In this document: positions 34,403 to 49,173 of the stretch, in pieces
How positions within the stretch are numbered: position 1 is the stretch's first letter
Layout: each line of letters opens with the position of its first letter
Assembly: GCA_944336125.1 (NCBI GenBank)
Contig: CALVLA010000001.1
Span: forward strand, 96,414-160,413
DNA: 64,000 nucleotides
DNA from: an uncultured Clostridia bacterium
GTDB taxonomy: Bacteria; Bacillota; Clostridia; Christensenellales; CAG-314
Direction of reading: 5' to 3'
The notes under the pieces: model-generated
What the model was told of the DNA's origin: nothing
The model's database searches: none
What the model saw: only the letters and a program-made list of their open reading frames with translations
Made by a program: the position numbers and the translations under genes

Positions 34403-34439
34403 GTGTATGCTTTTGAAAAAAACTTTGCTTTCAGGCGCA

Positions 34440-34475
34440 AAAAGTCATTTATGCTTCCGTAGTTAAATGGATATA
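34440..34475 (+). repeat. Partial copy of the tRNA-Arg 5' flank plus tRNA positions 1-23
   Basis: aaaagtcatttatgcttccgtagttaaatggatata is identical to 34569-34604. Similarity with a few substitutions and a 1-nt indel extends about 15 nt further upstream. Confidence 0.9.
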
Positions 34476-34581
34476 CTTCGCTTCCGCTCCGTGGCGTTCG
34501 CCGCAGCAGCGGCTCGGCTTAACAGCCCCGGGCTGTCCGTTTTTCAAACAAGCAAGTTTTTCAAGCACAAAAGTCATTTAT

Positions 34582-34656
34582 GCTTCCGTAGTTAAATGGA
34601 TATAACAGCCCCCTCCTAAGGGGCCGTTGTGGGTTCGATTCCCGCCGGGAGTACCA
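34582..34656 (+). tRNA. tRNA-Arg (anticodon CCT), CCA encoded
   Basis: Hand-folded cloverleaf. The acceptor stem is GCTTCCG/CGGGAGT, the D arm GTTA-AATGGATA-TAAC, the anticodon arm GCCCC-CTCCTAA-GGGGC (anticodon CCT), and the T arm GTGGG-TTCGATT-CCCGC. The discriminator is A, followed by CCA. Confidence 0.85.
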
Positions 34657-34685
34657 CCGCCGTCCTTTCGGACGGCTTTTTGTTT
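34657..34685 (+). terminator. Intrinsic terminator after tRNA-Arg
   Basis: Stem ccgtcc/ggacgg with loop tttc, followed by ctttttgttt. Confidence 0.75.
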
Positions 34686-34758
34686 CGTTTGGGAATCTCA
34701 CCATGTGACGCGATTGACGCAATGCGTAACAATCGCTATTCCGTCGCTTCGCTCCTTA

Positions 34759-34808
34759 CGATTCCCGCCGGGAGTACCACCGCCGTCCTTTCGGACGGCT
34801 TTTTGTTT
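34759..34808 (+). repeat. Direct repeat of the tRNA-Arg 3' end plus its terminator (att-like scar)
   Basis: The 50 nt cgattcccgccgggagtaccaccgccgtcctttcggacggctttttgttt are identical to 34636-34685. Confidence 0.9.
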
Positions 34809-34835
34809 TAAAAAAGCGGCGTTGTTACGCCGCTT
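34809..34835 (-). terminator. Intrinsic terminator at the end of the island transcription units
   Basis: Stem aagcggcg/cgccgctt (34814-34821 / 34828-34835) followed on the minus strand by a T-run (plus-strand A-run 34809-34815). Confidence 0.75.
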
Positions 34836-35965
34836 TAATCATTATATCCTTCCGGGTCATTTGAATAACCAAAAATCTCCGCTCTGTACTCCGCGTTTTC
34901 ATCAAGTGCCCCTTTAAACAAACAGTTTTTTATCGAATGTTTGCCGTTAACATAACCTGTTATTCCACCCGCACAACCGGGTGAATTTATTTTGGCATTT
35001 GCTTCGCAACCAAAAATTCCGCCTTTCCTCGATATCAGCCAGTCAGGATTTCCGCTGTAACCGGCAATTCCGCCTGCACACATTTCGTAGTATTCTTTTT
35101 CTTCTGAATATACACAGGAAACTTCGCCGTTAAAAACACAATTTTCGACTGTTCCCCACGAATTCGAGCCTACTATTCCGCCGGCAGTTCCCGTCGCCGT
35201 AATATTTCCGCTTACGGTACAGTCTTTTATCACAGAATCTAGCATACTTGAAGCAATTCCGCCGGCGGAGCTTGAATTTATTCCGTCAAAATCGCTCACG
35301 TCAATATGTACGTTTTCCATTTTCACACCATAAACAAGCGCATTTTTTAGTGAGCCGAACAGTCCACCCGCGCAGCCACCGTAAGGTCCGTTGAAAATTT
35401 CTTTCGAAGTCGAAATTGTAAGATTTTTTATCGTATATCCGTCAGGGTTTACAAACATACCGGAAAACTCGTTTCCTGCGGGATAATTTCCCAACGGCTC
35501 CCAGTTTTTGACGGATGCCAAATCTATGTCGGCTTTCAAAACATAAACTCCGTCCTTTTTGTTGTTTATGTTTTGCAGGTCTGAAACAGTGCGTATTGGC
35601 ATCATTTGGCTTTGGTCAAAGGAATACAACCTGCATAGATTTGTTTGAAAAACCGTCGAAGAATAATTGTTGTACAAATTAACTTTTATGTCGGAAACTC
35701 CGCATTTGACTGCGGTCACCGTGTTTCCTTCTGCCTTGTATATTCCGTTAGGCGATTGTACTATTTCGAATTTGTCAATTTTAAAGCCGCAGTTTTTAAA
35801 AATTTCGTATATATCAAATTCTTTTTTTTGACCGCTTTCCAAAACAACGGAATAAACCTCATAATTGTTAACGTCATTGGAAAAATATCGATATGTATCG
35901 GTACAGCCGCACAACAAAAATACAGTGGCAACGGAAAGTATTAAGCTTAAAAATTTTTTCATCAA
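34835..35965 (-). CDS. GLUG-motif surface lipoprotein (paralog 1)
   Basis: Signal peptide MMKKFLSLILSVATVFLLCGC. An Ig-like N-domain is followed by the pattern RTVSDLQNI...YVLKADIDLASVKNWEPLG...FSGMF...GYTIKNLTI. Repeated AGG(I/L)(A/V/F/T)G turns are typical of GLUG-motif proteins. Confidence 0.65.
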   Translation of the reverse strand: MMKKFLSLILSVATVFLLCGCTDTYRYFSNDVNNYEVYSVVLESGQKKEFDIYEIFKNCGFKIDKFEIVQSPNGIYKAEGNTVTAVKCGVSDIKVNLYNNYSSTVFQTNLCRLYSFDQSQMMPIRTVSDLQNINNKKDGVYVLKADIDLASVKNWEPLGNYPAGNEFSGMFVNPDGYTIKNLTISTSKEIFNGPYGGCAGGLFGSLKNALVYGVKMENVHIDVSDFDGINSSSAGGIASSMLDSVIKDCTVSGNITATGTAGGIVGSNSWGTVENCVFNGEVSCVYSEEKEYYEMCAGGIAGYSGNPDWLISRKGGIFGCEANAKINSPGCAGGITGYVNGKHSIKNCLFKGALDENAEYRAEIFGYSNDPEGYND

Positions 35966-36066
35966 AACACCTCCTACTTACCGACAGACAAAACAACAAA
36001 ATTTGTAAAATAATTAAATCAAATGTTTAATTAATTGGCTTTTTTAACGTCCTTTCTTCGACAAAG

Positions 36067-37151
36067 CTACTTCTGGGAATCTTCGAAAGCAAATCCGTAA
36101 TACTCGCCTTTGTACAAAGCAGTCTCACTAAACTGACCTGAAAACGAACAATTTTGTATGCACCTTTTGCCCCAGACGTAAGCAGAAATTCCCCCGACGC
36201 TTCCCTCCGCCGTAAGATTTGCATTGACGCGACAATTAACTATTCTTGCTTGGAGGGGGTCTTTGCTGTCAGCCATCGTGTATCCGACAATACCTCCTGC
36301 CACGTTAGAAGTGTGATCAATTTTTTCATCTCTGCTTATATTTGCCACGTTTCCTTCAAACGTACAGTTTTCGATTGTGGCAAACGAGAACGCGCCCGCA
36401 ATTCCTCCGGCATAACTTGCCGCAGTAACATTGCCTTTTACACTGCAATCAAGCAAATATCCGTTATAAAGAGAGCCAACGATAGCACCGGCCGAAGCCG
36501 TCCAGCCCACAGAAGTATAGGCGTTAACGTTTACGTTTTCCAACTTTATGTTGTAAAGAAAGCCGCCGGAAATCATATCAAACAATCCGCCGCGATTTTC
36601 CGGCTCGCAGGAAGTCTCGTTTTCGATATTCAAGTTTTTAATTACGTAGCCGTTTGGATTTATAAACATACCGCTGTATCTATCAATAGGCTTCCAATTT
36701 TCAACAGACGACAAATCCAAATCGTTCATTAAGAGGTAATTGTTTTTACCTTTTACTGCCTGCAAATCCTCCACTGTGCGGATTTTAAAAAAATCCTTTT
36801 CGTCGTATGCAAAAAGCATACCCAGACTCACTTCGTAAACCATCATCGTTTCGTTGTTATAGAGCTTTGCCGATACATCGATGACACCCGTATTCTTGGC
36901 AGTAATGGTATTTCCCTTTACCGAATAAATTTTGGGAGAATTGTTTATTTCGATTCGGTCTGCTTTAACTGAACAGTTAGCAAAAATTTCGTCAAAGTCA
37001 AACTCCTTGGACTCACCCACTTTTAACGCAAAGCGATAAACTGAATAATTTTGTGGCTTTTCGTATGAAAGTTTGTAATTGTTGCATGAGCATAATGAAA
37101 AAAACAAGCGCAACAAAAATTATGAAGCATAAAAGTTTTGACTTTTTTCAT
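36067..37151 (-). pseudogene. GLUG-motif surface lipoprotein (paralog 2), with the reading frame broken in a T5 tract within the signal peptide
   Basis: ATG 37151 has a GGAGGA RBS and encodes MKKVKTFMLHNF. The frame then drifts to a stop, while the 349-aa body (36067-37116, LLRLFFSLCSC...) is in another frame. One extra T in the run at 37115-37119 would give MKKVKTFMLHNFLLRLFFSLCSC. Confidence 0.6.
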
Positions 37152-37197
37152 AAATGTTTCCTCCATACAAAAATTTTAAAACGTTACCTTCGTTAAC

Positions 37198-37226
37198 ATT
37201 ATAACAACGTCAATTTTTCAAGTCAA
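37198..37226 (-). promoter_or_regulatory. Near-consensus sigma-A promoter for the GLUG lipoprotein genes
   Basis: On the minus strand: TTGACT (37226-37221), a 17-nt spacer, then TATAAT (37203-37198). Confidence 0.65.
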
Positions 37227-37254
37227 TATCCCTATATTTTTAACTTGTGTCTTT

Positions 37255-39495
37255 TTATTCATTGTACTGAGAAATTTCTGCAATGTTCAAGCTTTTTGAT
37301 TTTGAACTGTAAACGTTATTGTATCCCTTAAATTTCAAAGTGTTGTTTTCCGAAATTTCCAATTTCGCACCGACAACGTTGGAACTACTACACAAACCGA
37401 TAGTTTTATTTTCCGTCAAAATATAGACACCGGAATTCACAGATTCGCTGTTTGAAAAATATTGTGTGCAATCCTGTCCTTCAAACACATTCGAACCATC
37501 CGGACAATAGCAATAACACCCGTCGCAACTTGTAGGAGGTACGGTTCGTGTTTCTGAAGAATAATAATTGCCCGAAGAAACTTTGATTTTTGTCGGTTTG
37601 TCTTTGACCAATCCGTTGACGGTTTTTACCACATCGGTTGTACCGTTTCCGGACAAAGTCAATGAAGAAGCTACAACCTGCCACTTGTCTGACACAACGT
37701 AAGCAGATATATTCAATTCATTACCGGCCAATACCGTAACAGAGCGAATGCCGTCGTAAGCTTTACCGTTGACAACAAAATAGTCAAAAGTATAACCTGC
37801 ATCTACAGAAGGTATTATTTTAATCACATAATTCGGGAAAATCGGTGTTGTTTCTATTGAAATAGGTTCATACTCGGCAGGACATTTATCTCCGGGATTA
37901 ACAAGCATGTTGTTTTCACACCAGCAATAGCACCCTCCGTCGCATTCCGGCTCATATTCTCCGTGAATTTGTTTTTGATAACTTATATGTATACCTTGGT
38001 CAATTTGCAAATTTAGTATTGTGCGAACGACAGCCGTAGTCGTTATGTTTACGTTGCCCGATACCTCACAAGTAACGGTTTTGTCTCCGCTGTATGCCTG
38101 CGAATTTACTTTAAACAAGTCTATCCAATATCCGTGGGCTGCCGAAGCGGTAACTGTCAACACATCCCCTGTCAAAATTTCAGCCCCGTCAGTCAAAGGG
38201 GTGCCATTTTTTGAAACCGTAACAGTTGTATTTGCCCCTTGTGAAACAGAAAGAGTAAATCTGCCCACGCTAGTAGTTGCAAGCGTTAAGTTACCCGAAA
38301 CCTCAATGGTTTTTGTAAATGATTGTTCAGGATTGCCGTTTACCAAAAGACCCGTCACGTCATAATTTGAAAGAGACGGCACGGCTGAAATCGTAAGAGT
38401 TTCGCCGTGAATAATCGTTGCGCCGTTCGATAATGATTGTCCCGACGAATTAGTGACGTTAATTGTTGTGCCTACAGCCGGGTTTAATGTCAAGGTATAA
38501 CCTGATACCGTTGAGATAACCAGCGGCTGTTTAACAGTAATCCCCGTATCAACCCCGCCTTCGGAAGTCATTCCGTTAATTGTCGTTGAAACGATTTTAT
38601 TGTCACTCAAAGCATATGTCCTAATTTGCAGATATCTACCGTGTCTTACGGTATTCGCGCTGTATTTGTTTTCTACATACCTGGTACAATACTGGCTGTT
38701 TTGAATTTCCGTGCCGTCCTCACAATAGCAATAACACGTATCGCACAAATCGCCGTAAATTTCATAGTCAGAATTATAAAGATAAATTTCCGTATTAGGC
38801 GCGGCATTGAGAGTAATAGGATGTTGCACCAAACCGTTTGCCTGAACTACAGCCGTAACGTTTCCCGTGACGGAAGCAACAGAATTCGTTCCGCTTTGGT
38901 TGAGATAAAACGTAGGATCCGCATAATTCTCGTCGGCATTTGCCGATATAGATACACTGTCGCCGTAATAAAGTTTCAAACTGCCCGCCGATGAAGGATT
39001 TGCAATAAGCTGCCCCGTATTCCCGACAAGGCTGAAACTTCTGGAAATCGAGTAAGACACGTGATCCGGAGCGGCAGGATAAGACAATGTGAATTCCTGA
39101 ACTTCCATTTTGACGCCGGTAATTTTTACATCGCTTTGGACGCTTGCCACTGAAAAGGTCTGCCCTTGTTTCTCGTAAGTAATTTCACAAGCAAGCTTAA
39201 ACTGCGTTGACGAGTGTTCCGAAAGCGTGAGATTAAACGTTCCGTCAACTCTCGAACATTTGTTGACGAAAGAAAAATTTTTCGTCATTTTGTTTGTTTG
39301 ATTAGAAATTTCAAAAGTGCCGTTTAAAGGAACGGTTGTACTGACGTCACCGGTACACAAGCCGTTGAGATGTACCGTCAAATTTCCCTCAAGCGTCACT
39401 TTTTTTGTAAAATCGTATTGCGGCTTGTCGAACAGCACATAACTGCCGTTTGACAAAACCGTGTTGCTAAAAGTTGCAATTTGTATATCTGCCAT
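37255..39495 (-). CDS. Leaderless 746-aa beta-rich protein with three CxxCYC(Y/W)C cysteine clusters and InlB-B-repeat-like modules; unknown function
   Basis: The start is at ATG 39495 (MADIQIATF), preceded by AGGAG, and there is no signal peptide. Cys clusters are encoded near 38722-38745, 37921-37944 and 37504-37527. It is a paralog of the 46511-47959 gene. Confidence 0.6.
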   Translation of the reverse strand: MADIQIATFSNTVLSNGSYVLFDKPQYDFTKKVTLEGNLTVHLNGLCTGDVSTTVPLNGTFEISNQTNKMTKNFSFVNKCSRVDGTFNLTLSEHSSTQFKLACEITYEKQGQTFSVASVQSDVKITGVKMEVQEFTLSYPAAPDHVSYSISRSFSLVGNTGQLIANPSSAGSLKLYYGDSVSISANADENYADPTFYLNQSGTNSVASVTGNVTAVVQANGLVQHPITLNAAPNTEIYLYNSDYEIYGDLCDTCYCYCEDGTEIQNSQYCTRYVENKYSANTVRHGRYLQIRTYALSDNKIVSTTINGMTSEGGVDTGITVKQPLVISTVSGYTLTLNPAVGTTINVTNSSGQSLSNGATIIHGETLTISAVPSLSNYDVTGLLVNGNPEQSFTKTIEVSGNLTLATTSVGRFTLSVSQGANTTVTVSKNGTPLTDGAEILTGDVLTVTASAAHGYWIDLFKVNSQAYSGDKTVTCEVSGNVNITTTAVVRTILNLQIDQGIHISYQKQIHGEYEPECDGGCYCWCENNMLVNPGDKCPAEYEPISIETTPIFPNYVIKIIPSVDAGYTFDYFVVNGKAYDGIRSVTVLAGNELNISAYVVSDKWQVVASSLTLSGNGTTDVVKTVNGLVKDKPTKIKVSSGNYYSSETRTVPPTSCDGCYCYCPDGSNVFEGQDCTQYFSNSESVNSGVYILTENKTIGLCSSSNVVGAKLEISENNTLKFKGYNNVYSSKSKSLNIAEISQYNE

Positions 39496-39575
39496 AAAAT
39501 CTCCTGTAACTAACAAAAAATCAACCACCTAAAAGATGATTGATTTTAGTTAAAATAAAATTTTTAGTAATTTTT

Positions 39576-39604
39576 GCCGCTTGCGTTTTCTAAGCGCAAG
39601 CGGC
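39576..39604. terminator. Strong 10-bp GC-rich hairpin between the second TM gene and the 746-aa gene (terminator or processing site)
   Basis: gccgcttgcg / cgcaagcggc with a 9-nt loop. There is no U-run on the minus strand and only a weak T-rich tail on the plus strand. Confidence 0.3.
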
Positions 39605-39646
39605 TTAATTAATATTATTGTTTGTTTCGCAAAGATTTACCACATA

Positions 39647-39988
39647 TCAAAGGAAAAACAATTCAACAAGCATAAATGCCATCACGCCCAAAAGCAAAAC
39701 ATCGAGCGTAAAAACAAATTCCCAAGAGGTGTATCCCACTGTAGGTTTTTTTGGATAAGCAATTCTATAAATCTTGTAATAAACAATAATCCAAAACGTT
39801 GCCCACGCAATCGTCGCGCTTATCAGGCAATATTTGTCTATTGTTCCGCTGATAAGAAACGAAACAACAAAACAAACGCCCGAAAGGACAAACTGTCCCA
39901 ACACTGCAAGGAACCAATGTTCCAAAAAAAATGTTTCCATGTAGGCTTTTATGGATTCGCCTTTTTGTCTTTTTCTTAATTTTTTCAT
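39647..39988 (-). CDS. Small polytopic membrane protein, candidate (orphan) immunity protein, paralog of 40040-40438
   Basis: 113 aa with 3-4 hydrophobic helices. It shares the (Y/L)EH(L/W)FL...LI(E/S)G(K/T)I..(F/Y)C pattern with its neighbour. No obvious SD is present. Confidence 0.45.
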   Translation of the reverse strand: MKKLRKRQKGESIKAYMETFFLEHWFLAVLGQFVLSGVCFVVSFLISGTIDKYCLISATIAWATFWIIVYYKIYRIAYPKKPTVGYTSWEFVFTLDVLLLGVMAFMLVELFFL

Positions 39989-40039
39989 GATTTTTTAAAA
40001 TTTAACATCACTTGTCATCAAGCCAATTTTTGTTACCTG

Positions 40040-40438
40040 TCAAGTGAAAATTTTTGTTACCAATCCCACAACAACAATGGCTATTATAATGCCAACTAAA
40101 AATACAGCTGTCATCACCCATCTACCGTATAAAACCATGGACCAAGAAATATCGTTTTCAATATTTATATTTTTCTTTTTTAAAATCTCAAACAAGCATT
40201 TTCGTAAAATTTGCGTGGCTATTACAACGCCTGTTATAAAGACAACACCAAAACAAAATTCGCCGATTTTTCCTTCGATAAGCCACATAAGCAAAAATGT
40301 CGAAACTGACAAACAAAGCTCAAAAAAAATGTAAAGGAATAAATGTTCATACATTAAATAAAACTGATAATCATAAAACATTTCTTTGTCATACGGCATT
40401 CTGACGTTTTTAACTAATTTTTTTAACAACCTTTTCAT
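40040..40438 (-). CDS. Small polytopic membrane protein, candidate cognate immunity protein for the RHS C-terminal domain
   Basis: 132 aa with 3-4 hydrophobic helices and a GAGGA RBS. It lies 61 nt downstream of the RHS stop, the classical toxin-immunity position. Confidence 0.5.
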   Translation of the reverse strand: MKRLLKKLVKNVRMPYDKEMFYDYQFYLMYEHLFLYIFFELCLSVSTFLLMWLIEGKIGEFCFGVVFITGVVIATQILRKCLFEILKKKNINIENDISWSMVLYGRWVMTAVFLVGIIIAIVVVGLVTKIFT

Positions 40439-40499
40439 TTTTCCTCAATTTTTAAAAATTAACTTGTACTATTGTTTTGGTTTTTTATCTGACAATCAA

Positions 40500-43400
40500 T
40501 TATGCCAAGTCTTCCAATAAGTCTTCAAGAACCAATGATATGATTATGATTAATATTACCGTAATTATCGCTCCGGGCAATCCGCCAACAATAGAACCCA
40601 GTTTTATTATTAAGAAAGATATACCTTCTGACAAGAAAAATACTTTGGCGTTTTTTTCCAAACTATACAAGAAGTCGCCTGTTTCCGCAACATCACTAAA
40701 AAATGAAATGAAAAAATTAGTAAGAGATAATGCTATTGTAAATGATTTGTATTCTATTTTTTTTAAAATTTCAACAAAATCGAAGGATGCATTTGTAAAA
40801 TCTAATATGTTGCCGATAACCGCGGCTCCGACAAACAAAGCCTGCCCCACACTGATTTGAGTGTTGTTGAACAGATAGTCTGTTGGCGAAATAACGGCTT
40901 TTGCTTCCTTAACGTTGAGAGGTCTGTTGGCACAGTAAGCAAAGAGATTCAGCCCGTCTTTTTCAAACGACAAATTCGACATGTCTCTCATAGCCAAGTA
41001 TCTGCCTGTTTCAGGGTTATAATATTCTTTACCGGTGTAATACAAGCCACTTTCCGCATCATAATAATAACCTTTGTAACCGATGCGGAACAATGTTGAA
41101 GACGAAATATTTGTTCCTTCCAATGTTTTAGGGTAATGAGGTTTTCCGTATGCGTCATAATTTATCGCAAGAACACGTCCGCTGTCTCCGTAAATTCCGA
41201 CTACACTTCCGAAGATATCTCTGTCAAAACTGAAAACAACAAAATTATTTCCGTCTTTCATGAAAGTATCATCATCCTCAAAGTCAGGACGATAAAGTTT
41301 GACAGCGCAAACTCCAATTTCATCATATATGTAATGAATCATATATAACTCTTGCACTGTATCCTGTCTTACATTATAACATCTTTCTGCAATGAGCTTG
41401 TCACCGTCATAATAGTAGCATCGGTTTTCACTTACATTATTTGAAATAACATTTCCGTTTGTGCGTATGACAGTTGATGTTTCCCTGAACGTCCTTTTAC
41501 CGTACAAATCGTAATCAAATTTATAAGTGTCTGTCGTTTCAGTTGTATTGATGCCATGAATAATCTCCGTATTGGAAAATTGTTTTAAAAGACCTCTTTC
41601 CCAGCTAACATTTTTTCCGTTAATTTTTGAAGGACAACCCTCATTATAACTGACGTTATCGTCTATTATTGTACTTCCAAATGTATGTTTTTTCAATAGG
41701 TACGGGTTATTTTGATGATACTCAAATGAATTGTTTCCCGAATTTGTACCTGTTACGTTTTTTGCTGTAATATTTCCGTACGAATCATAATTATATGTTA
41801 TCGACTGACCTGTCAAGCCGTTGCTTTCAGTCTTTAATCTACCGTTTTCATATGTGTACGAAATTAATTCGACACCGTTTGAGGAAACTTTAGTTATGTT
41901 TCCCGCCGTATCGTATTCATACTCTCTAACAACTTCTATTCCTTGCCCCACATCGTTAAAAGGTGTGTGATTAGTGATTTCCTTACTTACGAGATTTGTT
42001 TCGACTCCGTTTTTGATTAGGTATTGATATGTTTTTTGCAAACTGCTTCTGTTTGAAAATATACCGACCGGAGAAGAGCAGTATGTTTTTTTCAATCGGT
42101 TAATATCATCTACCTCACGCTGCAAAACAATGTTATTTGCTTCCATATTAGAATTAGACACATCACCGTTGTGGTTAGGCGAAACATAAGTCACGTTTAC
42201 GGTTTTGCCGTCACGGTCAAATTGATTTTTAAAATACATTATTCCTGCCGCTTCGTTGTTTATCGCATAACCCCTGTATGCCTTTCCGTCTTTTACAAAA
42301 GATTTTTTCTTCCATACCAACTTTCCGGTACAGTTAAACACTTCTTCTTTAAACTCGTCGGTAGAATACGTTTTTTTCGTACCTGCCAAATCATCGATAA
42401 TCTTGCTGATTTGTGGTTTCGATGTTCCGTTTACGTAACTGATAGAAGCCGACTTGTCTCCTACCGAAACAGCAGTCATCCTACCGTACTTGTCAAAAGT
42501 AGTTGTCTGTGAAGAATTACCGAATGTTTTTGTAATTGTTTTTCCGCTACCGGAATTTATGACGCTGCTTGCAAAAATTTGCTCATCGTTAATTTTTACA
42601 CTAGTTAAATCACCAAGAGCAGAATAACCGAATTCATACTCGGCATTACCTTGAGATATGCTTTCTATATTACCTTTATTGTAGGTTAAAGCAGTATCAT
42701 TCACATTAACAATTTTTTCCTTGAAATTGTCGTAAATATATGTAATATTTCCTGTCGGTGAAAAAACTTTGTTCACAATGTTATGCGGCATTAAATACTC
42801 ATAACGCGTAATAAAACCGTTTGCGTCTGTTTCGAAATTTTTATGACCTGTCTGAACGTCATACGATGATGACATCACAAGACTTTTATCACTTGCAGAA
42901 GCATTATATTTGCTTACTTTTGTTTCAGTAAGATTACCGAAAGAATCATAAGTATATTCGGTAACAACATTATTTTCCAAAACATATTTGACTGTTCCGT
43001 CATAATTTGTTCGTACAATTTTGCCGTAACTACCGTAAGTTTTATTTGACAAAAGATCTTTAACCGATGTAACAGACTCAATATAATTGGGCAAGAATGT
43101 TTCCTCAACATCTATACATGCTCTAAACTGATTTCCTGCACCTTTATCTTGAGACGAGTCGTCAATCAATTTAGTTCTGTAAATTAATGATACAATTTTA
43201 TCTTGACCTTGCTCTGCAGGCTGTATCATATTTAAATTTATAAAGTTTGAGTTAACCGTATCAATTTTAAAAGAGCATTTGCTTGCAGCAACATTGCAAA
43301 TTCTTTTTTTACCGTTGCAATAAATTATATCGAATGAATTTCTGCTTTTTGCCGCATTTCCAAGAGTTTTCCTCAAATCATTAGTGGTAAATTCATTTGC

Positions 43401-44939
43401 GCCGAAAGCAGTAAGTATTCCATCAATACTTATGCCACTGATTGCTTTTACGCTATATTCGGTATCTTGTACTTCGGTTCCTGTTTTTTCTTTAACAATA
43501 AGTATTTCTGAATTAGCCAAACTTGAAGTTGCGCTTTCTTGAGAATACAATTCTTCATTGCTATTATCTGTAATATTAAATATACTTTCAATTTCACCGT
43601 CATTTTTGAAGTTATATTTCTTTTTTGCACCCAACTCGTCAGTAACAACGGTATTGTCATTGTTGTAAGCAAAAGAAGTGAACATGACGGCATCGGCAAG
43701 ACGAGCAACCTTGATTACACGGCCCAATTCATCATAAGTCATGTTTAATTCTTTGTAGTCGTCGCCGAAAATTTTAGTAAGTCTGCCGTTTAAGTATCCG
43801 AACTGCGCCTGAATACTTTCAACGGTGCTTCCGTCCACTTGCGCTTCTTTGTGAATTTTTGTCAGACGACCGTCGATGTAAGTAAACTTCAACACTTCGT
43901 CCGCGCTATGCTCGCTTCCCGTGTAAGAAATGCTTGAAAGCAAGTCGTTTTGGTATGAAAACGTCGCTTTGTAATTTCCGTTTTGAATGTAAGCTATGCG
44001 TGTGTTCGCCAAAGAATCGCCGATGTCCGAAGCGTTAACGTTGGACGAGTTATTCAAACCGCTTGCCTCATATCCGATGAAAAGGTCATTGCCCAAAGCT
44101 GAATTTATGCAACAAAGTTTGCCTTGCGGCGAAAAATGCATTTCGTTTCCGTTGACGTCGGAAAGTTTTTTGCAACTTGCAACTGTTCCCAAAAACAAGC
44201 CCAGGCCGCTCGTATCGTAAATTTTTCCGTTGCTTATATCAAAAAAGTGCGCTTTGCCGCTTGCGTCCACGTAAGAAGCATTTTGATTGTTTCCCGCAAG
44301 ATATTGATGAAAATTGGTTTTCCACCCTTTGCCTGCCTGTGTGTGAATATCCGAAAAAATCTCATCGCTGTCATAGCTTGCGCCTTTGTAAATGTGCATA
44401 AGGTTAAAAGCCGTAGCCCCGCCGCCAAACGACCAGTCGTTTCTTGAAAAATTCAAGCTGCCGTCTCGAAGGTTTACGCTTGCCGTACCTATCGAGCCGA
44501 TGTCAAAGGTTTGATAAGCGTCGGTATTTAATTCACGGTTTACGAAATCGCATTCCCTATCAGCGGTAAGTTTTACGGTAAATGACGCAGAAGCGGAAAA
44601 AGACGCCGCCGTTTTTGGAATGATTTTTACAAAAATCGTCCCTCCGCCGTTCATTTTACTTTTAGTCAAATCCAGCAAGTTTGCGGTAAAAGTGTTTTCT
44701 CCTGCCGAAAAAGTTTTTTCAAACAAAAAATGGCAAGTTTCGCAAGGCGGAGTCACCTCCGCCTCAGGCAACGCGAAAATATTTGCGGAAAACGAAGCCG
44801 ATGCGTTTACGGCAATATTTAAATTCGCTTCCGTAATTGAGTTTTCCGAAGCAGACGGATTGACCTTGTTAAAATCCGGAACAGTAATTTCAAATATTCC
44901 GTTTGCCGCAGTAAAATTTTTAATATATGTACTCTGCAT
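40500..44939 (-). CDS. RHS/YD-repeat protein (1479 aa) with no signal peptide and a hydrophobic 136-aa C-terminal domain
   Basis: Many YD repeats (YTYDSFGNLTE, YEYDTAGNITK, YNYDSYGNITA, FDYDLYGKRT, INYDAYGKP). The RHS core end is YYDAESGLYYTGKEYYNPETGRYL...DGLNLFAYCANRPLN. The start has an AAGGAGGG RBS. Confidence 0.85.
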   Translation of the reverse strand: MQSTYIKNFTAANGIFEITVPDFNKVNPSASENSITEANLNIAVNASASFSANIFALPEAEVTPPCETCHFLFEKTFSAGENTFTANLLDLTKSKMNGGGTIFVKIIPKTAASFSASASFTVKLTADRECDFVNRELNTDAYQTFDIGSIGTASVNLRDGSLNFSRNDWSFGGGATAFNLMHIYKGASYDSDEIFSDIHTQAGKGWKTNFHQYLAGNNQNASYVDASGKAHFFDISNGKIYDTSGLGLFLGTVASCKKLSDVNGNEMHFSPQGKLCCINSALGNDLFIGYEASGLNNSSNVNASDIGDSLANTRIAYIQNGNYKATFSYQNDLLSSISYTGSEHSADEVLKFTYIDGRLTKIHKEAQVDGSTVESIQAQFGYLNGRLTKIFGDDYKELNMTYDELGRVIKVARLADAVMFTSFAYNNDNTVVTDELGAKKKYNFKNDGEIESIFNITDNSNEELYSQESATSSLANSEILIVKEKTGTEVQDTEYSVKAISGISIDGILTAFGANEFTTNDLRKTLGNAAKSRNSFDIIYCNGKKRICNVAASKCSFKIDTVNSNFINLNMIQPAEQGQDKIVSLIYRTKLIDDSSQDKGAGNQFRACIDVEETFLPNYIESVTSVKDLLSNKTYGSYGKIVRTNYDGTVKYVLENNVVTEYTYDSFGNLTETKVSKYNASASDKSLVMSSSYDVQTGHKNFETDANGFITRYEYLMPHNIVNKVFSPTGNITYIYDNFKEKIVNVNDTALTYNKGNIESISQGNAEYEFGYSALGDLTSVKINDEQIFASSVINSGSGKTITKTFGNSSQTTTFDKYGRMTAVSVGDKSASISYVNGTSKPQISKIIDDLAGTKKTYSTDEFKEEVFNCTGKLVWKKKSFVKDGKAYRGYAINNEAAGIMYFKNQFDRDGKTVNVTYVSPNHNGDVSNSNMEANNIVLQREVDDINRLKKTYCSSPVGIFSNRSSLQKTYQYLIKNGVETNLVSKEITNHTPFNDVGQGIEVVREYEYDTAGNITKVSSNGVELISYTYENGRLKTESNGLTGQSITYNYDSYGNITAKNVTGTNSGNNSFEYHQNNPYLLKKHTFGSTIIDDNVSYNEGCPSKINGKNVSWERGLLKQFSNTEIIHGINTTETTDTYKFDYDLYGKRTFRETSTVIRTNGNVISNNVSENRCYYYDGDKLIAERCYNVRQDTVQELYMIHYIYDEIGVCAVKLYRPDFEDDDTFMKDGNNFVVFSFDRDIFGSVVGIYGDSGRVLAINYDAYGKPHYPKTLEGTNISSSTLFRIGYKGYYYDAESGLYYTGKEYYNPETGRYLAMRDMSNLSFEKDGLNLFAYCANRPLNVKEAKAVISPTDYLFNNTQISVGQALFVGAAVIGNILDFTNASFDFVEILKKIEYKSFTIALSLTNFFISFFSDVAETGDFLYSLEKNAKVFFLSEGISFLIIKLGSIVGGLPGAIITVILIIIISLVLEDLLEDLA

Positions 44940-44948
44940 TTTCCCTCC

Positions 44949-45725
44949 TTAATCACCTATAAACACAAACGCGTTTTTTCGAGGATTGTTTTTCATCCAC
45001 TCTACTGCGCAAAACAGCGAAAGTTTTGCGTAATTCAATTCAGAAAGCCGCTCGGTATCCCACAGTACTTTTTCAAAATTATTTTTGTACTCTGCTTTGT
45101 CATGCGGCCATACAAATCCGACGTCGGCGGCGGAAAAAATCAGATGGTGTGTTTGAATTTTCCTTTCATCCGGTTTTGCCACAAAACAATCGGCAAAACA
45201 ACCGTTTTCCTCCAGTTTTTCCCTGACTGCCCTCAAAGTAGCGCCCGTGCCCACTTTTTCAAAAACGGCGTCTATTTTTATGCCGTCAAAGACATCGCCC
45301 AACAAGTTTTTGTAAAAATCTATTTGTTTGGTGTTTCCGAATTGTCTGAAACTGTATGCGTTGTGCTCAGAAATTGTTTGTTCGAGTTTTTCTTTTAACA
45401 CTGAAAAGTCAAAACTGTTTTTGGTCTCGACAATTTCGACATTATCGAATGATTTTAGCTTTTCCTCTGTTTTTTTACTAAAAATACCTATCGGTATCAC
45501 AAACAGCTTGCTGCCTGTTTTTCGGCACTGCTCGGCAAGAGCAATGCCGAAATTTCCCGCAGTAATCTCTGCCACTGCTTGTCCGTGTTTAAGTTCGCCG
45601 CTTTTCAAGGCACTATTTATCACCCACTCCGCAAGCAACTCTTTTTTGCTTTTAACTGGACGAAAAACGTAAAGCTTCCCTTGAAGTCGGTAAAAATCAC
45701 AAAGGTTTTCCAAACTCCAAAACAT
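44949..45725 (-). CDS. Divergent CysK-fold (PLP fold type II) protein, paralog B
   Basis: 258 aa. Segments align by eye with the cysK of this window. GELKHGQAVAEITAGNFGIALA matches GDIKPGDEISEATSGNTGIAFS. AVFEKVGTGATLRAV matches AFTAGVGTGGTMMGT. NAFVFIGD matches NVVTVFADD. The start overlaps the paralog A stop (TGATG). Confidence 0.5.
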   Translation of the reverse strand: MFWSLENLCDFYRLQGKLYVFRPVKSKKELLAEWVINSALKSGELKHGQAVAEITAGNFGIALAEQCRKTGSKLFVIPIGIFSKKTEEKLKSFDNVEIVETKNSFDFSVLKEKLEQTISEHNAYSFRQFGNTKQIDFYKNLLGDVFDGIKIDAVFEKVGTGATLRAVREKLEENGCFADCFVAKPDERKIQTHHLIFSAADVGFVWPHDKAEYKNNFEKVLWDTERLSELNYAKLSLFCAVEWMKNNPRKNAFVFIGD

Positions 45726-46492
45726 CAGTCCTCCCAGTAAAGAAGTACAGTTTTACCCGGGTTCATTTGCAGCCAGTTAATAGCACCTTGTACGCTTGTG
45801 AAAAAAGTTCTTGCAGCGTTGCCCATTACGCCGAAATCACCGTTTTGATACCTGAACGCAAGATGTCCCGCCATGCTGCCCTGTACGTCAATCAGCTGAA
45901 TATTCTGATTTTTTACCAAATCGCGTATGAAAGGTTTCTTTTCATACTTTTTGTCGTCCCTGTAACATGAGTTGGAAAAACCGAATTGACACGAATTTTT
46001 CAAAATCTCGTAAAAGCCTCTCATTGTCGCGCCGCTTCCCATAAAGTCAATGAAAACATCGGGAACACGACCGAATTCGGAAACTGCCTTTTGCGCCTCT
46101 TGTTTGTAATATTCAATCATTGCCAAATCGGAAAACTGATCAAAATAGTACCAGCCCTCATTTCTCAGACGAGCAATAGCGTCTTCTTTTTCCTGCGCAG
46201 GAGTCCTGTCAATCGAAAAGCCCAAGGCGGTAATTTGATTAAACGAAACGGGATCCTCAAACTTGCCCAAAATAGGCAAAAAGTTAATGCCCCTCTGCTT
46301 GCAGACTTTTGCCACTTCTACGGCAAACCTACCTGACGAAGCGATGGAAAGCTTGTTGTTGAAAAGCCTGCCCTGCCTTTGACACGTATCAACGATATAT
46401 TCTGCCAAAGCGGCATTTTTCCCTTTAGGATTTTTGTATGCGTAAATATTACCGTTGCAGTTTTCCATAAAAATATTAAGATTTTTAATCAT
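45725..46492 (-). CDS. Divergent CysK-fold (PLP fold type II) protein, paralog A
   Basis: 255 aa with NPKGKNAALAEYIV (candidate PLP-lysine region), IASSGRFAVEVA and DFMGSGATMRGF. The same architecture as paralog B. AAGGAGAA RBS. Confidence 0.45.
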   Translation of the reverse strand: MIKNLNIFMENCNGNIYAYKNPKGKNAALAEYIVDTCQRQGRLFNNKLSIASSGRFAVEVAKVCKQRGINFLPILGKFEDPVSFNQITALGFSIDRTPAQEKEDAIARLRNEGWYYFDQFSDLAMIEYYKQEAQKAVSEFGRVPDVFIDFMGSGATMRGFYEILKNSCQFGFSNSCYRDDKKYEKKPFIRDLVKNQNIQLIDVQGSMAGHLAFRYQNGDFGVMGNAARTFFTSVQGAINWLQMNPGKTVLLYWED

Positions 46493-46510
46493 TGTTTTCT
46501 CCTTAAAAAA

Positions 46511-47959
46511 TTAAAAATATTGTTCGACCTTAGTAATAGTCAATGTTTTTTGAGGCGTATCTCCACCTTTGTAACCGTTGAATGTAAGTTGGTTTGTACT
46601 TATGCTTACAGTCGTATCATGCAAAGACGATGAACTAGACGACATTGAAAGCGAAATGCTTGTACCGGCATTGTTAGAAGTATGCAGACCTTCGTTTATG
46701 TAAATGTAATCTCTCCTCCACTCTCCGCACAAACTTCCGTAATCCACCTGACCGCCGTCGGCACAGTAGCAATAGCAGCCGCCGTCGCACCACTCTGGCT
46801 CCGTCGAGCCGGGCGCATAGTAGCGCGTGCTGTAGGATCCGCTTGAAACAGTGATACGCGTTTTTCTTCCTGCAACTATACCCGGCACGGATTTTGTTAT
46901 ATTATCCGTTGTTCCGCTAAACGTATAGGTATTTGAATTTACCGTTCTCCATGCGACAGATTGCAGTTTTGTCTCAATAGTCATTTTTCCGTTCACTATT
47001 GTATTACTGTTTGCCATAACACTGAAAAATGTACTTTGAAATGTTTTGTTTCCCACCTTAACGTAATCCAAAAATTTCCCGTTCGGAATGCTTGTTTGGA
47101 TATAAATCACATCGCCGTAAGTAATATAATCAAGGTTGTAATCACCGTAAATTGTAGGACAATCTTCTCCCCATGGTACCGAGGAGCCGTCCTGACAATA
47201 GCAATAGCATCCTCCGTCACAGTCAAATGACGGATGAGGCGGATACAAAAATTTTTTCAAACTTATCGTAGTCCCAGTATAAGGTTGCAAAACTATTGGA
47301 TAATGAATTTTGCCAGACGTATTGAAAACTAACGAAACGTTTCCGGATATGTTGGTTTTAGATGTAACTCCGGCCGTATCAAAGCCGAAAGACGGTGCGT
47401 AGTACCCGTTCTCGGCAGATGCAGATACCGTTAGGGAATCGCCGTTGTAAACATGCACGGATCCGCTATAATTAGGACTGTTTATCAACACTCCTGTTTC
47501 CGCAACTTCACTTGCCGTTCTTGTCACCGTGTAAGTGTAGCCTTCAGGACAAGCCGGATAACTAAGTACATAACCCGGAATTTCCTGATAAATTTTCGTA
47601 ACGGAAATCTGCCCCGACACATCCCACGCCATAAATGACTGACCTTGAAAAGTGTAATCCACCGTGCAATAAAGAGCCCCGTTAGAAACTGTCAGGCTCA
47701 ATGTCGCATCAATCGACGAGCACTTATTTGTGAGCTTGGCCGAAAAATTTTTACTGTTTTGTCCGGCCGGAATTTCGTAAACACCTGCAGTAAAAATATC
47801 CCCTGTCACGTTTTCGCCGCAGCTTCCCGATATACTACCCGACCAATTTCCCGATATATTTACGGAAATAGGATAGTTGGAATAGATTTCGTCAAGAGCA
47901 AACGAAACCTGCGTACCTTTACTTAAAACTTTGTTTTCGGAATTTAATATTTGTTCCAT
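46511..47959 (-). CDS. Leaderless 482-aa beta-rich protein with two CDGGCYCYC clusters; paralog of 37255-39495
   Basis: The start is at ATG 47959 (MEQILNSE), preceded by GGAGG. The shared N-terminal ~240 aa includes LSYPA(A/C)P and GDS(L/V)(T/S)(V/I)SA(S/N)A(E/D)(N/E)(G/N)Y(Y/A)(A/D)P. Cys clusters are encoded near 47198-47221 and 46766-46789. Confidence 0.6.
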   Translation of the reverse strand: MEQILNSENKVLSKGTQVSFALDEIYSNYPISVNISGNWSGSISGSCGENVTGDIFTAGVYEIPAGQNSKNFSAKLTNKCSSIDATLSLTVSNGALYCTVDYTFQGQSFMAWDVSGQISVTKIYQEIPGYVLSYPACPEGYTYTVTRTASEVAETGVLINSPNYSGSVHVYNGDSLTVSASAENGYYAPSFGFDTAGVTSKTNISGNVSLVFNTSGKIHYPIVLQPYTGTTISLKKFLYPPHPSFDCDGGCYCYCQDGSSVPWGEDCPTIYGDYNLDYITYGDVIYIQTSIPNGKFLDYVKVGNKTFQSTFFSVMANSNTIVNGKMTIETKLQSVAWRTVNSNTYTFSGTTDNITKSVPGIVAGRKTRITVSSGSYSTRYYAPGSTEPEWCDGGCYCYCADGGQVDYGSLCGEWRRDYIYINEGLHTSNNAGTSISLSMSSSSSSLHDTTVSISTNQLTFNGYKGGDTPQKTLTITKVEQYF

Positions 47960-47970
47960 AAAACCTCCAG

Positions 47971-48372
47971 TCATAAAATTCGATTGATAACGACATTTCC
48001 GATTTTTTCCGTACACGTTTTTGACTTTGTGTTTTCCTCTCCGACAAATGTTTTTACGTTTACGTTTTTAGTAAAATCCACCAAATCATCGATTTTTTCA
48101 TCCAGCATGCCAAAATCAAAGGAAATACCGTTATCCAAAGCGTATTTTCTCATAAGAGTCATTACGTATTCTTTTTTCTCCTGTCCGCTGAAATTTACAA
48201 ATTGTTCCGCTTGTTTGATAAGCGGCAAAATTTCATCGCAGATTTGAACGATGTTTTCCGCCGTTGTTTTTGCTTTTTCACTTTTCAAAAACTTTGCGAT
48301 AAATGTGATAACCGCAATTATCAGGCTAATTACAGTGCCTGCCAACGAAATGATAATTTCCGCATTTTCCAC
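47971..48372 (-). CDS. Holin-like small membrane protein (resembles the LL-H phage holin family)
   Basis: 133 aa with a GTG start preceded by AGGAGG. It has a single N-terminal TM (IIISLAGTVISLIIAVITFIAKFL), then a helical domain with AEQ...GQEKKEYV...D..ID pattern as in Holin_LLH proteins. This is recognised from memory only. Confidence 0.4.
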   Translation of the reverse strand: MENAEIIISLAGTVISLIIAVITFIAKFLKSEKAKTTAENIVQICDEILPLIKQAEQFVNFSGQEKKEYVMTLMRKYALDNGISFDFGMLDEKIDDLVDFTKNVNVKTFVGEENTKSKTCTEKIGNVVINRIL

Positions 48373-48462
48373 AACTTTTTCCTCCTTTGCAAAATCAAGT
48401 ATAGTTATCGCTAAAAACAGAATTCAATAGTAGCTGTCAATATAAAATTTTTTATAAAAAAC

Positions 48463-48492
48463 AAAAAACCGACGATGAGACGTCGGTTTTTT
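48463..48492. terminator. Bidirectional intrinsic terminator separating the polysaccharide locus from the island
   Basis: Stem ccgacg/cgtcgg (48469-48474 / 48481-48486), flanked by A6 and T6. Confidence 0.75.
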
Positions 48493-48534
48493 ATGTTAAT
48501 TTTAGTTTTTTTACGTTGTATAAAAAAAGCGCCG

Positions 48535-49173
48535 TCAGGCGCTTTTTGTGTTTTCGTATTCTTGCTTGAGTTTTTCTATCTCTTCTTCAGGTACGTGCCG
48601 CGTAAGTTTTTTCTCTCCGAAAAAAATTACGCCAAGTGTCTGAAAAAGTATTTTTATGTCCAACAAAAACGAAGCTTTCTTTGTATAAGTAACGTCGTAG
48701 TAACTGCGCTCCCTAGGCGAAAGGTATCCGTTTCCTTTTACCTGAGCCAGTCCGCTTATCCCGGGCTTTACGTTAAACTTCTGTTTTTCCCACTCTTCGT
48801 AGTGGTCGAGATAAACTCCCAAAAGCGGGCGAGGTCCGACAAGGCTCATGTCCCCTTTTAAAACGTTCAAAAGCTGCAAAAATTCATCGAATTTGATTTT
48901 TCGTATGACTCTGCCCACTTTTGTGAGGTTTTTGTTTGTGTCCTCGATTACCGGATGGTTTATATCGAAAGGCACGTCTGTACTCTTCATAGTACGGAAT
49001 TTAAAAACCTTGAAAGGTTTTTGGTCTTTGCCTATACGTTCCTGACGGAAAATAGCAGGACCTTTGCTTTCGATTTTTACTGCGATGGCTATTATGAGAA
49101 GCGGTAAGGCTAAAACGATAAGTCCCAAAACCGCAACCAGTTTGTCGCCCACAAATTTAATAAATTTATACAT
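48535..49173 (-). CDS. Polyprenyl-phosphate sugar phosphotransferase (bacterial sugar transferase family; priming enzyme)
   Basis: 212 aa with one N-terminal TM segment, then GPAIFRQERIGKDQKPFKVFKFRTM and SLVGPRP motifs. Confidence 0.88.
   Translation of the reverse strand: MYKFIKFVGDKLVAVLGLIVLALPLLIIAIAVKIESKGPAIFRQERIGKDQKPFKVFKFRTMKSTDVPFDINHPVIEDTNKNLTKVGRVIRKIKFDEFLQLLNVLKGDMSLVGPRPLLGVYLDHYEEWEKQKFNVKPGISGLAQVKGNGYLSPRERSYYDVTYTKKASFLLDIKILFQTLGVIFFGEKKLTRHVPEEEIEKLKQEYENTKSA

Follow-up and report, generated by a model that had tools for sequence, protein, structure and literature searches.

A gene block beside tRNA-Arg in an uncultured chicken-gut clostridium is probably mosaic flexible genome built around a portable RHS toxin operon

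We analysed a 13.5-kb block of ten genes in a 64,000-nucleotide stretch (the window; positions 96414–160413 of contig C1) from the genome of an uncultured chicken-gut member of the Clostridia that resembles Candidatus Heteroclostridium. The block is flanked by leuS (31773–34202, minus strand) and tRNA-Arg(cct) on one side and by a sugar-transferase gene (48535–49173) on the other, and its ten genes, which extend from 34835 to 48372, are all encoded on the minus strand, as the layout of the open reading frames (ORFs) bears out. An original prediction had interpreted this block as a single horizontally acquired island that became immobilised and expanded by internal duplication. Our data favour a different reading, to which we assign a probability of about 0.7. 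That is, the block represents mosaic flexible genome at a tRNA hot spot, and its core is a portable, lineage-restricted RHS toxin operon. Old recombination at the hot spot, rather than one integrase-borne arrival, would have brought the block to its site. The genome (G000) comprises 1.24 Mb in 20 contigs with a GC content of 0.4356, and all relatives used for comparison are metagenome-assembled genomes (MAGs) or metagenome contigs. Coordinates without contig label refer to window positions, C-numbers to contigs and L-numbers to extracted loci.

The block is organised in three transcription units, namely an 8.7-kb operon of seven genes (48372–39647), the Cys757 gene on its own, and two genes encoding GLUG proteins. 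The seven genes encode, in this order, a holin-like protein, the Cys-cluster protein Cys501, two shortened CysK-fold proteins (PALPb and PALPa), the RHS protein and two small membrane proteins (TM132 and TM113). As the intergenic gaps from holin to TM113 measure only 1–61 nt and the sole terminator follows TM113 (39547–39517), where it divides Cys757 from the preceding genes, we regard the seven genes as one operon. As a unit, the operon is found again in five or more further chromosomal contexts among related uncultured Clostridia. The gene order is holin, Cys, PALPb, PALPa, RHS in L091; holin, Cys, three PALP genes, RHS and then a small gene in L093; and Cys, holin, PALPb, PALPa, RHS in L076, whose host has a GC content of about 0.5 and a DAHP synthase 81% identical to that of G000. 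In L072–L075, an Amidase_3/PG_binding gene heads the cassette where the holin gene would stand, followed by a Cys gene (747 aa), PALPb, PALPa, RHS and tRNA-Thr. A related RHS locus is present in the congener Candidatus Heteroclostridium caecigallinarum (G002, a MAG from chicken caecum), where it is located beside tRNA-Ser, includes a Cys protein and has a TM113 homologue after the RHS gene. Elsewhere, the operon appears without Cys757 or the GLUG genes.

Part of the operon also occurs separately. A second triad, composed of a Cys-cluster gene (342 aa), PALPb and PALPa and lacking RHS, is found in G000 itself (C3:17370–19896; L003 7371–9897), where it adjoins a large serine recombinase gene (L003 5908–7185) upstream of valS. 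Contig C3 of G002 (L068) carries the same triad, likewise upstream of valS and without RHS. Apart from these sites the genes are rare. At 90% clustering, PALPa has 14 relatives and the Cys protein 16 among 5.8 billion proteins. A search of 399 genomes of the class detected no PALPa outside G000, and within the family PALPa occurs only in G002 and at the second site of G000. With a profile of the Cys protein, the contig of G002 was the only match among the genome contigs, and a search of 1.84 billion representatives yielded a handful of full-length relatives, while the others share the repeat domain alone. The GC content of homologous cassettes in other hosts tracks that of the host, i.e. 0.48–0.52 in a host of 0.51–0.55 and 0.35–0.40 in a host of 0.40, which points to long residence in the lineage and to no recent import.

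The RHS gene (40500–44939, minus strand) encodes a leaderless protein of 1479 aa with YD repeats (PF05593, E 3.4e-12, 46.9 bits, cut-off 22; TIGR01643, E 2e-10) and an RHS-associated core at residues 1261–1344 (TIGR03696, 44.4 bits, cut-off 32.5). Residues 1–130 gave no match in Pfam or NCBIfam and contain neither a hydrophobic segment nor a recognisable export domain. The C-terminal tail, encoded at about 40500–40910, is hydrophobic and glycine-rich. Downstream of RHS, TM132 (40040–40438, minus strand) and TM113 (39647–39988, minus strand) encode small multi-pass membrane proteins according to hydropathy, TM132 being the candidate cognate immunity gene and TM113 a further candidate. The nature of the tail together with the membrane-located immunity proteins suggests a putative membrane-depolarising toxin. 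Knowledge of the family and the behaviour of the module, described below, lead us to infer an antibacterial toxin-immunity role for the RHS and TM genes: the RHS protein may enclose a toxin aimed at competing bacteria, and TM132/TM113 would protect the producer.

The toxin part of the locus varies between strains. The first ~395 aa of the RHS protein (43756–44939) are common to the species, and the core and tail (40500–43755) are strain-specific. Three conspecific contigs leave the match to the window at position 43755, corresponding to RHS residue ~395, and continue into a different RHS core, and even strains with flanks of 97% identity have exchanged the stretch 39647–43755. In a sister strain (scaffold_67 of ERZ16268218), the sugar-transferase gene is followed by genes for holin, Cys482, PALPb and PALPa and then by a different RHS gene of 1486 codons, which likewise ends in a glycine-rich hydrophobic tail and precedes a 129-aa gene. 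Next come an orphan fragment of 223 aa, which comprises the end of a core, YDPSGT and a glycine-zipper tail and is accompanied by small membrane proteins, the toxin tail of the window as a 124-aa orphan starting with ...VDPSGH, and sequence matching TM132/TM113. Thus, the tail and immunity genes of the window (40840–39545) lie behind another RHS gene as a displaced module with 91–95% identity; therein the TM132 homologue is truncated, and the module is followed by Cys753 and GLUG1. Such an arrangement conforms to the displaced modules classically described for Rhs loci and also accounts for the fact that, within the window, AT content and compositional deviation both peak in 39647–43755.

The operon opens with the gene for a holin-like protein of the LL-H family (47971–48372, minus strand; PF09682, Phage_holin_6_1, 28.4 bits, cut-off 24.9; PHROG holin, E 7e-9), which has one N-terminal transmembrane segment. 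A holin homologue directly followed by an RHS-like ORF is found in four further genomes (G001, G473, G457 and G456). Hydropathy analysis detected no signal peptide on the RHS protein or on the Cys proteins. Type 10 secretion, relying on holin and endolysin, releases the Tc toxins of Yersinia including their RHS-repeat cocoon (PMC10847048), and TcdE/TcdL of C. difficile provide a type 10-type precedent for release of TcdA/B (PMC12485765). The lack of signal peptides, the recurrent adjacency of holin and RHS genes and these two precedents suggest holin-dependent release; that is, the signal-less RHS protein, and perhaps also the Cys proteins, may exit by a type 10-like route. As in type 10 systems, a large signal-less toxin is encoded beside a phage-type holin, and its release would involve a derivative of a lysis cassette. 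In contrast to them, the window contains no endolysin gene, an Amidase_3 gene being present only in the L072 version, the holin belongs to a different family (LL-H), and the likely targets are other bacteria. Our literature search found no paper tying a holin to a Gram-positive YD-repeat toxin. As a separate observation, in two short contigs, each from a different sample (L062 and L064; ERZ16268279 and ERR10610663), the reading frame of holin residues 1–67 continues into the central part of the alternative RHS gene. The joint, at window position 48170, is identical in both; Cys501, PALPa, PALPb and the N-terminal part of RHS would be lost through it. The fusion reflects either a genuine deletion or a chimera created during assembly at a short shared word.

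PALPa (44949–45725, minus strand) and PALPb (45725–46492, minus strand) match PF00291 with 53.7 and 45.4 bits, respectively (cut-off 35 bits), and PALPa also matches cysteine synthases in the PDB (E 1e-11). Alignment with the CysK encoded in the window revealed that both proteins retain the Schiff-base lysine, which is aligned in all eight family members. The Gly loop is likewise kept in both; the Asn loop is preserved in PALPa (TAGNFG) and degenerate in PALPb (SSGRFA). Both lack the segment of about 25–35 residues that holds GxSSGA, and they score only 61 and 33 bits against cysteine-synthase equivalog models with cut-offs of about 350. By these sequence criteria, PALPa and PALPb are not ordinary cysteine synthases, and their constant pairing suggests a heterodimer.

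The third conserved component, Cys501, is encoded by an ORF reaching from 46511 to 48016 on the minus strand, with the start called at ATG 47959, yielding a protein of 482 aa (46511–47959) with two CDGGCYCYC clusters, whose cysteine columns are invariant across the family alignment. An AlphaFold2 model (mean predicted local distance difference test score, pLDDT, of 92) depicts an all-beta multidomain protein. Searching the PDB by sequence retrieved nothing, and the sole significant PDB match of the model is the TIE adhesin of B. anthracis (6fwv, E 4e-5, low TM-score). The fold matches in the PDB and among viral proteins are generic beta-sandwich, adhesin, repeat or tail-fibre-like proteins with TM-scores below 0.25, and we therefore take no function from them. 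The Cys protein and the CysK-fold pair strictly occur together, whether RHS is present or not, which suggests that they are either substrate and enzyme or members of one complex. The CysK-fold pair may thus act on or with the Cys-cluster protein, which in turn may be a surface-binding partner.

The original prediction had noted a shifted composition, which is upheld by windowed GC, by GC content at third codon positions (GC3) and by dinucleotide tests. The block has a GC content of 0.389 as compared to 0.4356 for the genome, corresponding to about the 3rd percentile among 13.5-kb windows of the genome, with a minimum of 0.325–0.36 at 40–44 kb. Codon usage, assessed as GC3, is low for all eight block ORFs of at least 150 aa (2.6th–33.5th percentile), compared to the 55th–98th percentile for flanking genes on both sides, with the sugar transferase taking an intermediate position. 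The dinucleotide signature δ* of the whole block lies at the 99.4th percentile. When the block is divided, however, the composition no longer fits one island: δ* reaches the 99th percentile for 39647–43755 and the 97th for 34835–39528, whereas 43756–48372 is native-like (39th–46th percentile). A foreign appearance is limited to the RHS core/toxin/immunity part, which varies between strains, and to the GLUG/Cys757 part. In agreement with the prediction, Pfam, NCBIfam, PHROGs and PADLOC identified no integrase, transposase or phage structural gene in the block, the holin gene being the only phage-like one. A reading as defence island was dropped, as PADLOC matched none of the ten proteins to known defence proteins. 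The rest of G000 contains two PF00589 matches and one large serine recombinase, all outside the block. One of the two tyrosine recombinase genes (C2:27412–27960) lies in C2:15000–35000, a region that exceeds all other long stretches of the genome in AT content (13.5-kb windows with a GC content of 0.368) and probably is a prophage or integrative element.

The left border is formed by tRNA-Arg with duplicated pieces, as had been proposed, and the repeats are exact (34440–34475 equals 34569–34604; 34636–34685 equals 34759–34808). All elements of this border lie on the plus strand. The intact tRNA-Arg(CCT) gene is located at 34582–34656 (ARAGORN; 59.9 bits with the Rfam tRNA model). It is preceded by a pseudo 5' part (34440–34529), in which the 36-nt repeat, comprising the 13 nt upstream of the tRNA and tRNA positions 1–23, is followed by a 45-nt insert (34476–34520) and by AACAGCCCC plus a terminator-like hairpin. 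The other repeat measures 50 nt and extends from the T loop of the tRNA to CCA and the terminator. Its first copy (34636–34685) is separated from the second (34759–34808) by a copy of a 70-nt element (34686–34758), which has a hairpin core and a 5' end representing an inverted copy of the T arm of the tRNA. The second copy abuts GLUG1 and is the counterpart of the tRNA 3' half found at GLUG1 in the sister strain. The right border is a bidirectional terminator, confirmed on both strands at 48461–48494. No third copy of the 50-mer within 3 mismatches was found by pattern search, and no right-end copy was detected at 48373–48534 by pattern search, blastn-short or nhmmer. The search for further att-like copies, suggested by the original prediction, did return one, a 94% copy with an identical 73-nt spacer after tRNA-Glu on contig C9, and none that brackets the block. 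As both copies of the repeat lie on the same side of the block, we rejected them as its attL and attR.

The 70-nt element belongs to a family of its own, to which no Rfam family corresponds. In G000 it is also present after tRNA-Val(tac), in two tandem copies, after tRNA-Gln(ctg) and after tRNA-Glu(ctc), the last copy being identical to that at tRNA-Arg and ending with an Arg-type 3' end. With these copies, located at C1:201768–202000, C9:50976–51070 and C9:36079–36172, the element occurs at no fewer than four tRNA loci of G000; weak copies lie at C12:25655–25743, C11:39492–39563 and C10:151–207, and in G002 (L045, reverse strand) three tandem copies follow tRNA-Arg. The 5' end of the element is an inverted copy of the T arm of the local tRNA, after each copy the local tRNA is repeated from T loop to CCA plus terminator, and the conserved hairpin contains one compensatory change between G000 and G002. 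Low-GC cargo directly follows the element at four of four loci, namely the present block, a gene for a 1199-aa protein, a PDDEXK_4 nuclease gene and a Schlafen-type helicase gene.

In the sister strain represented by scaffold_67 (L086 14560–19060), tRNA-Arg is interrupted in its anticodon loop by a low-GC element of 4.2 kb, each joint of which shows CTCCTAAGGG. The element encodes its own tRNA-Arg(cct), which is 78% identical to that of the host, a 252-aa protein, an AAA_21 ATPase and a tyrosine integrase of 469 aa, and it sits between an interrupted tRNA 5' half, which contains the same 45-nt insert, and the 3' half abutting GLUG1. Hence, the interrupted 5' half in the window corresponds to the attL side of this conspecific element. 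Since the 5' half of the host gene carries the insert, the strain probably relies on the tRNA-Arg provided by the element. The tRNA therefore is an active integration site, and the element lies beside the block and is no part of it. A composite island formed by element and block was rejected, as each end of the element is marked by a crossover site (CTCCTAAGGG) of its own.

To compare the site within the species, we used contigs that encode an identical sugar-transferase protein and extend beyond it. All nine conspecific samples reaching past the sugar-transferase gene carry the holin side of the block with 97–100% nucleotide identity. Outside the species, three congeneric species, with LeuRS proteins 87–90% identical, do not have the block at this position. 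In G002 (LeuRS 90%), leuS and tRNA-Arg are followed by the three tandem 70-nt elements, ABC/FtsX/ABC-F genes, a gene for a 570-aa GLUG protein and two small genes, and then by ROK, GNAT, a 391-aa gene and AddA. The ROK-to-AddA genes of G000 lie just right of the window (C1:160556–168108). Since synteny resumes at ROK-GNAT-AddA, the variable stretch relative to G002 consists of the block plus the 15.6-kb polysaccharide locus. In G003 (LeuRS 88%), leuS is followed by 12.4 kb of unrelated metabolic genes with normal GC content (M60 peptidase, PPDK-like, LysR, acetyltransferase, FMN-reductase and Fe-ADH genes) and then by tRNA-Arg in opposite orientation, with the sugar transferase and polysaccharide genes directly next. 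The block is thus fixed at the site within the species and absent there in the congeners, i.e. it is not syntenic in all relatives. The expectation that tRNA-Arg would directly adjoin the sugar-transferase gene in relatives lacking the block holds for G003, albeit with inverted tRNA, but not for G002, and no conspecific strain free of the block was found. In all three species (G000, G002 and G003) the 3' side of the tRNA faces variable cargo. The polysaccharide locus itself (48535 to ~64000) has native-like GC3 and is shared with G003, though variable relative to G002.

The remaining two units of the block lie next to the tRNA. Cys757 (37255–39528, minus strand) encodes a second Cys-cluster beta-repeat protein with a weak Flg_new_2 match. 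GLUG1 (34835–35965, minus strand) encodes a lipoprotein, in which an N-terminal hydrophobic segment is followed by LCGC (PF07581, 32.2 bits). It is also present in sister strains, and a look-up of GLUG1 returned only a 2.6-kb contig. Its paralog GLUG2 (36067–37151, minus strand) also contains GLUG motifs and has a near-consensus promoter at 37226–37198. The ATG (37151) and signal-peptide start of GLUG2 are out of frame with the 349-aa body (ORF 36067–37116), the shift occurring at a T run. In two conspecific samples the body is deleted, position 37120 being joined to 35994 at a TTTTGTTG microhomology, which leaves the promoter and the first codons in place. This remnant indicates that GLUG2 is ancestral in the species and decaying, and no recent duplicate.

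The four paralog pairs recognised by the original prediction are real, the last one only weakly so. GLUG1 and GLUG2 share 41% identity (E 1e-84), Cys757 and Cys501 30–32% (E 3e-46), PALPa and PALPb 24% (E 2e-13), and TM113 and TM132 30% across 53 aa (E 4e-5). Growth of the block by internal duplication, however, is contradicted by this low identity of 24–41% and by the fact that PALPa and PALPb each have orthologues of their own elsewhere, at the second locus of G000 and in other genomes. Both architectures of the Cys protein are also found elsewhere. As PALPa and PALPb have separate orthologues everywhere, the split between them is older than the spread of the cassette. In our reading, the paralogs of the block are also older than its arrival at the site.

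These results bear on the possibility that a single island integrated at tRNA-Arg, lost its integrase, expanded through tandem duplication of its own genes and can no longer move, which we consider unlikely. The block does adjoin the tRNA on its 3' side, tRNA 3' ends are repeated there, GC3 is low in all large genes, neither G002 nor G003 has the block at this site, and a tyrosine integrase element uses the same tRNA in a sister strain. However, both 50-nt repeats lie left of the block, with the other copy only at tRNA-Glu, so that no att sites bracket it, and the integrase element of the sister strain has its own attL/attR around 4.2 kb and excludes the block. Moreover, three units rather than one make up the block, neither Cys757 nor the GLUG genes accompany the operon where it recurs, the dinucleotide signature is native in the 5' third of the block, and the paralogs share only 24–41% identity and have separate orthologues elsewhere.

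Somewhat less probable still is a vertically inherited, lineage-specific region that is AT-rich only owing to weaker codon selection on secreted and accessory genes and whose genes were rearranged or lost in the other species. This would be in line with the same junctions in 9/9 conspecific samples, with cassette GC following host GC in other lineages and with confinement of the cassette to a family-level clade (14–16 clusters among 5.8 billion proteins, none in the 399 class genomes). Yet the cassette occupies a different chromosomal context in each lineage, 39647–43755 is swapped between strains with 97% identical flanks, δ* reaches the 97th–99th percentile for two of the three parts, and the flanking tRNA is a demonstrated insertion site. 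It is very improbable that the block derives from a prophage or a phage-derived particle, of whose lysis genes only that for the holin would be left and of whose tail fibres the beta-repeat Cys proteins would be residues. The cassette steadily occurs without phage genes, and despite the LL-H family holin, the weak matches of the Cys501 model to phage repeat and tail-fibre-like proteins and the Amidase_3 gene heading the L072 cassette, the window contains no capsid, portal, terminase, tail tube or endolysin genes, the holin gene is grouped with RHS and CysK-fold genes in conserved order in six lineages, and the fold matches have TM-scores below 0.25.

Several observations also weigh against our own reading of a mosaic block with a portable toxin operon as its centre. 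Where the RHS core ends, this copy reads ...NRPLNVKEAKAV... and shows no canonical DPxGL motif for autocleavage, even though the orphan copies of the sister strain do have VDPSGH and YDPSGT. Nine of the 13 holin homologues of the family are not located beside RHS and may be ordinary prophage holins, and with no peptidoglycan hydrolase found by Pfam in 34424–48534 the holin-endolysin secretion pair is incomplete. Low GC3 may equally reflect weak selection on accessory or surface genes. Finally, none of the nine conspecific samples has an empty site, and acquisition is thus deduced from other species only.

The locus can be compared with several known systems. In enterobacteria such as E. coli, Salmonella and Dickeya, Rhs loci keep displaced orphan C-terminal toxin-immunity modules downstream. 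The present locus resembles them in its YD-repeat shell, RHS-associated core and variable C-terminal toxin followed by an immunity gene, in the AT-richness of the variable part and in the exchange of core and C-terminal part between strains. It differs in that its host is a monoderm member of the Clostridia with a 1.2-Mb genome, that PAAR, VgrG and a type VI system are lacking, and that the RHS protein, which has no signal peptide, LXG domain or visible DPxGL, is encoded behind holin, Cys-cluster and two CysK-fold genes. WapA of Bacillus subtilis is a Gram-positive RHS-type toxin that acts contact-dependently and possesses a Sec signal peptide and wall-binding repeats. Both are RHS-repeat toxins of Bacillota with polymorphic C-terminus and downstream immunity gene, the latter being predicted in our case, but the RHS protein of the window has neither the Sec signal peptide nor the wall-binding repeats. 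Genomic islands and cis-mobilisable elements linked to tRNA genes are flanked by attL/attR and occur with or without integrase. The block resembles them in its position 3' of a tRNA, in the duplication of tRNA 3' ends, in its compositional deviation and in its accessory cargo; in contrast to them, the repeats do not flank the block, an integrase is missing, composition is uneven, and between the repeats sits the 70-nt element, whose family is present at four tRNA loci.

Precedents also exist for CysK-fold proteins tied to a toxin system or to protein-borne sulfur: CdiA-CT of E. coli 536 uses CysK as toxin partner, and CysM works with the sulfur-carrier protein CysO. Unlike the CysK used by CdiA-CT, the CysK-fold genes described here are dedicated, shortened, paired and part of the toxin operon, and they also occur without RHS. 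Going further, one may tentatively speculate that the conserved cassette constitutes an undescribed toxin-delivery module of monoderm bacteria, in which the holin gates release, the adhesin-like Cys protein targets or carries the RHS cocoon, and the remodelled PLP-fold (pyridoxal phosphate) heterodimer chemically modifies the invariant CDGGCYCYC clusters, the latter idea drawing on the analogy with CysM acting on CysO. The triad without RHS at the second locus would then have to be viewed as having a standalone function. Separately, the 70-nt element, which reproduces the T arm of the host tRNA in either orientation, may mark a new kind of small insertion site for low-GC cargo, a suggestion we regard as equally tentative.

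Taken together, the foreign composition is confined to parts of the block, and the tRNA repeats come from other events. For annotation this calls for caution, as AT-richness, a neighbouring tRNA and the lack of an integrase do not equate to one dead island. Within one uncultured species the locus illustrates displacement of toxin-immunity modules, and across species the tRNA site takes different cargo in each. Much is known about RHS toxins of Gram-negative bacteria, which deliver them by type VI secretion or Tc complexes. The operon described here represents a compact, repeatedly conserved gene set that bears on how signal-less RHS proteins may be exported in monoderm gut anaerobes.

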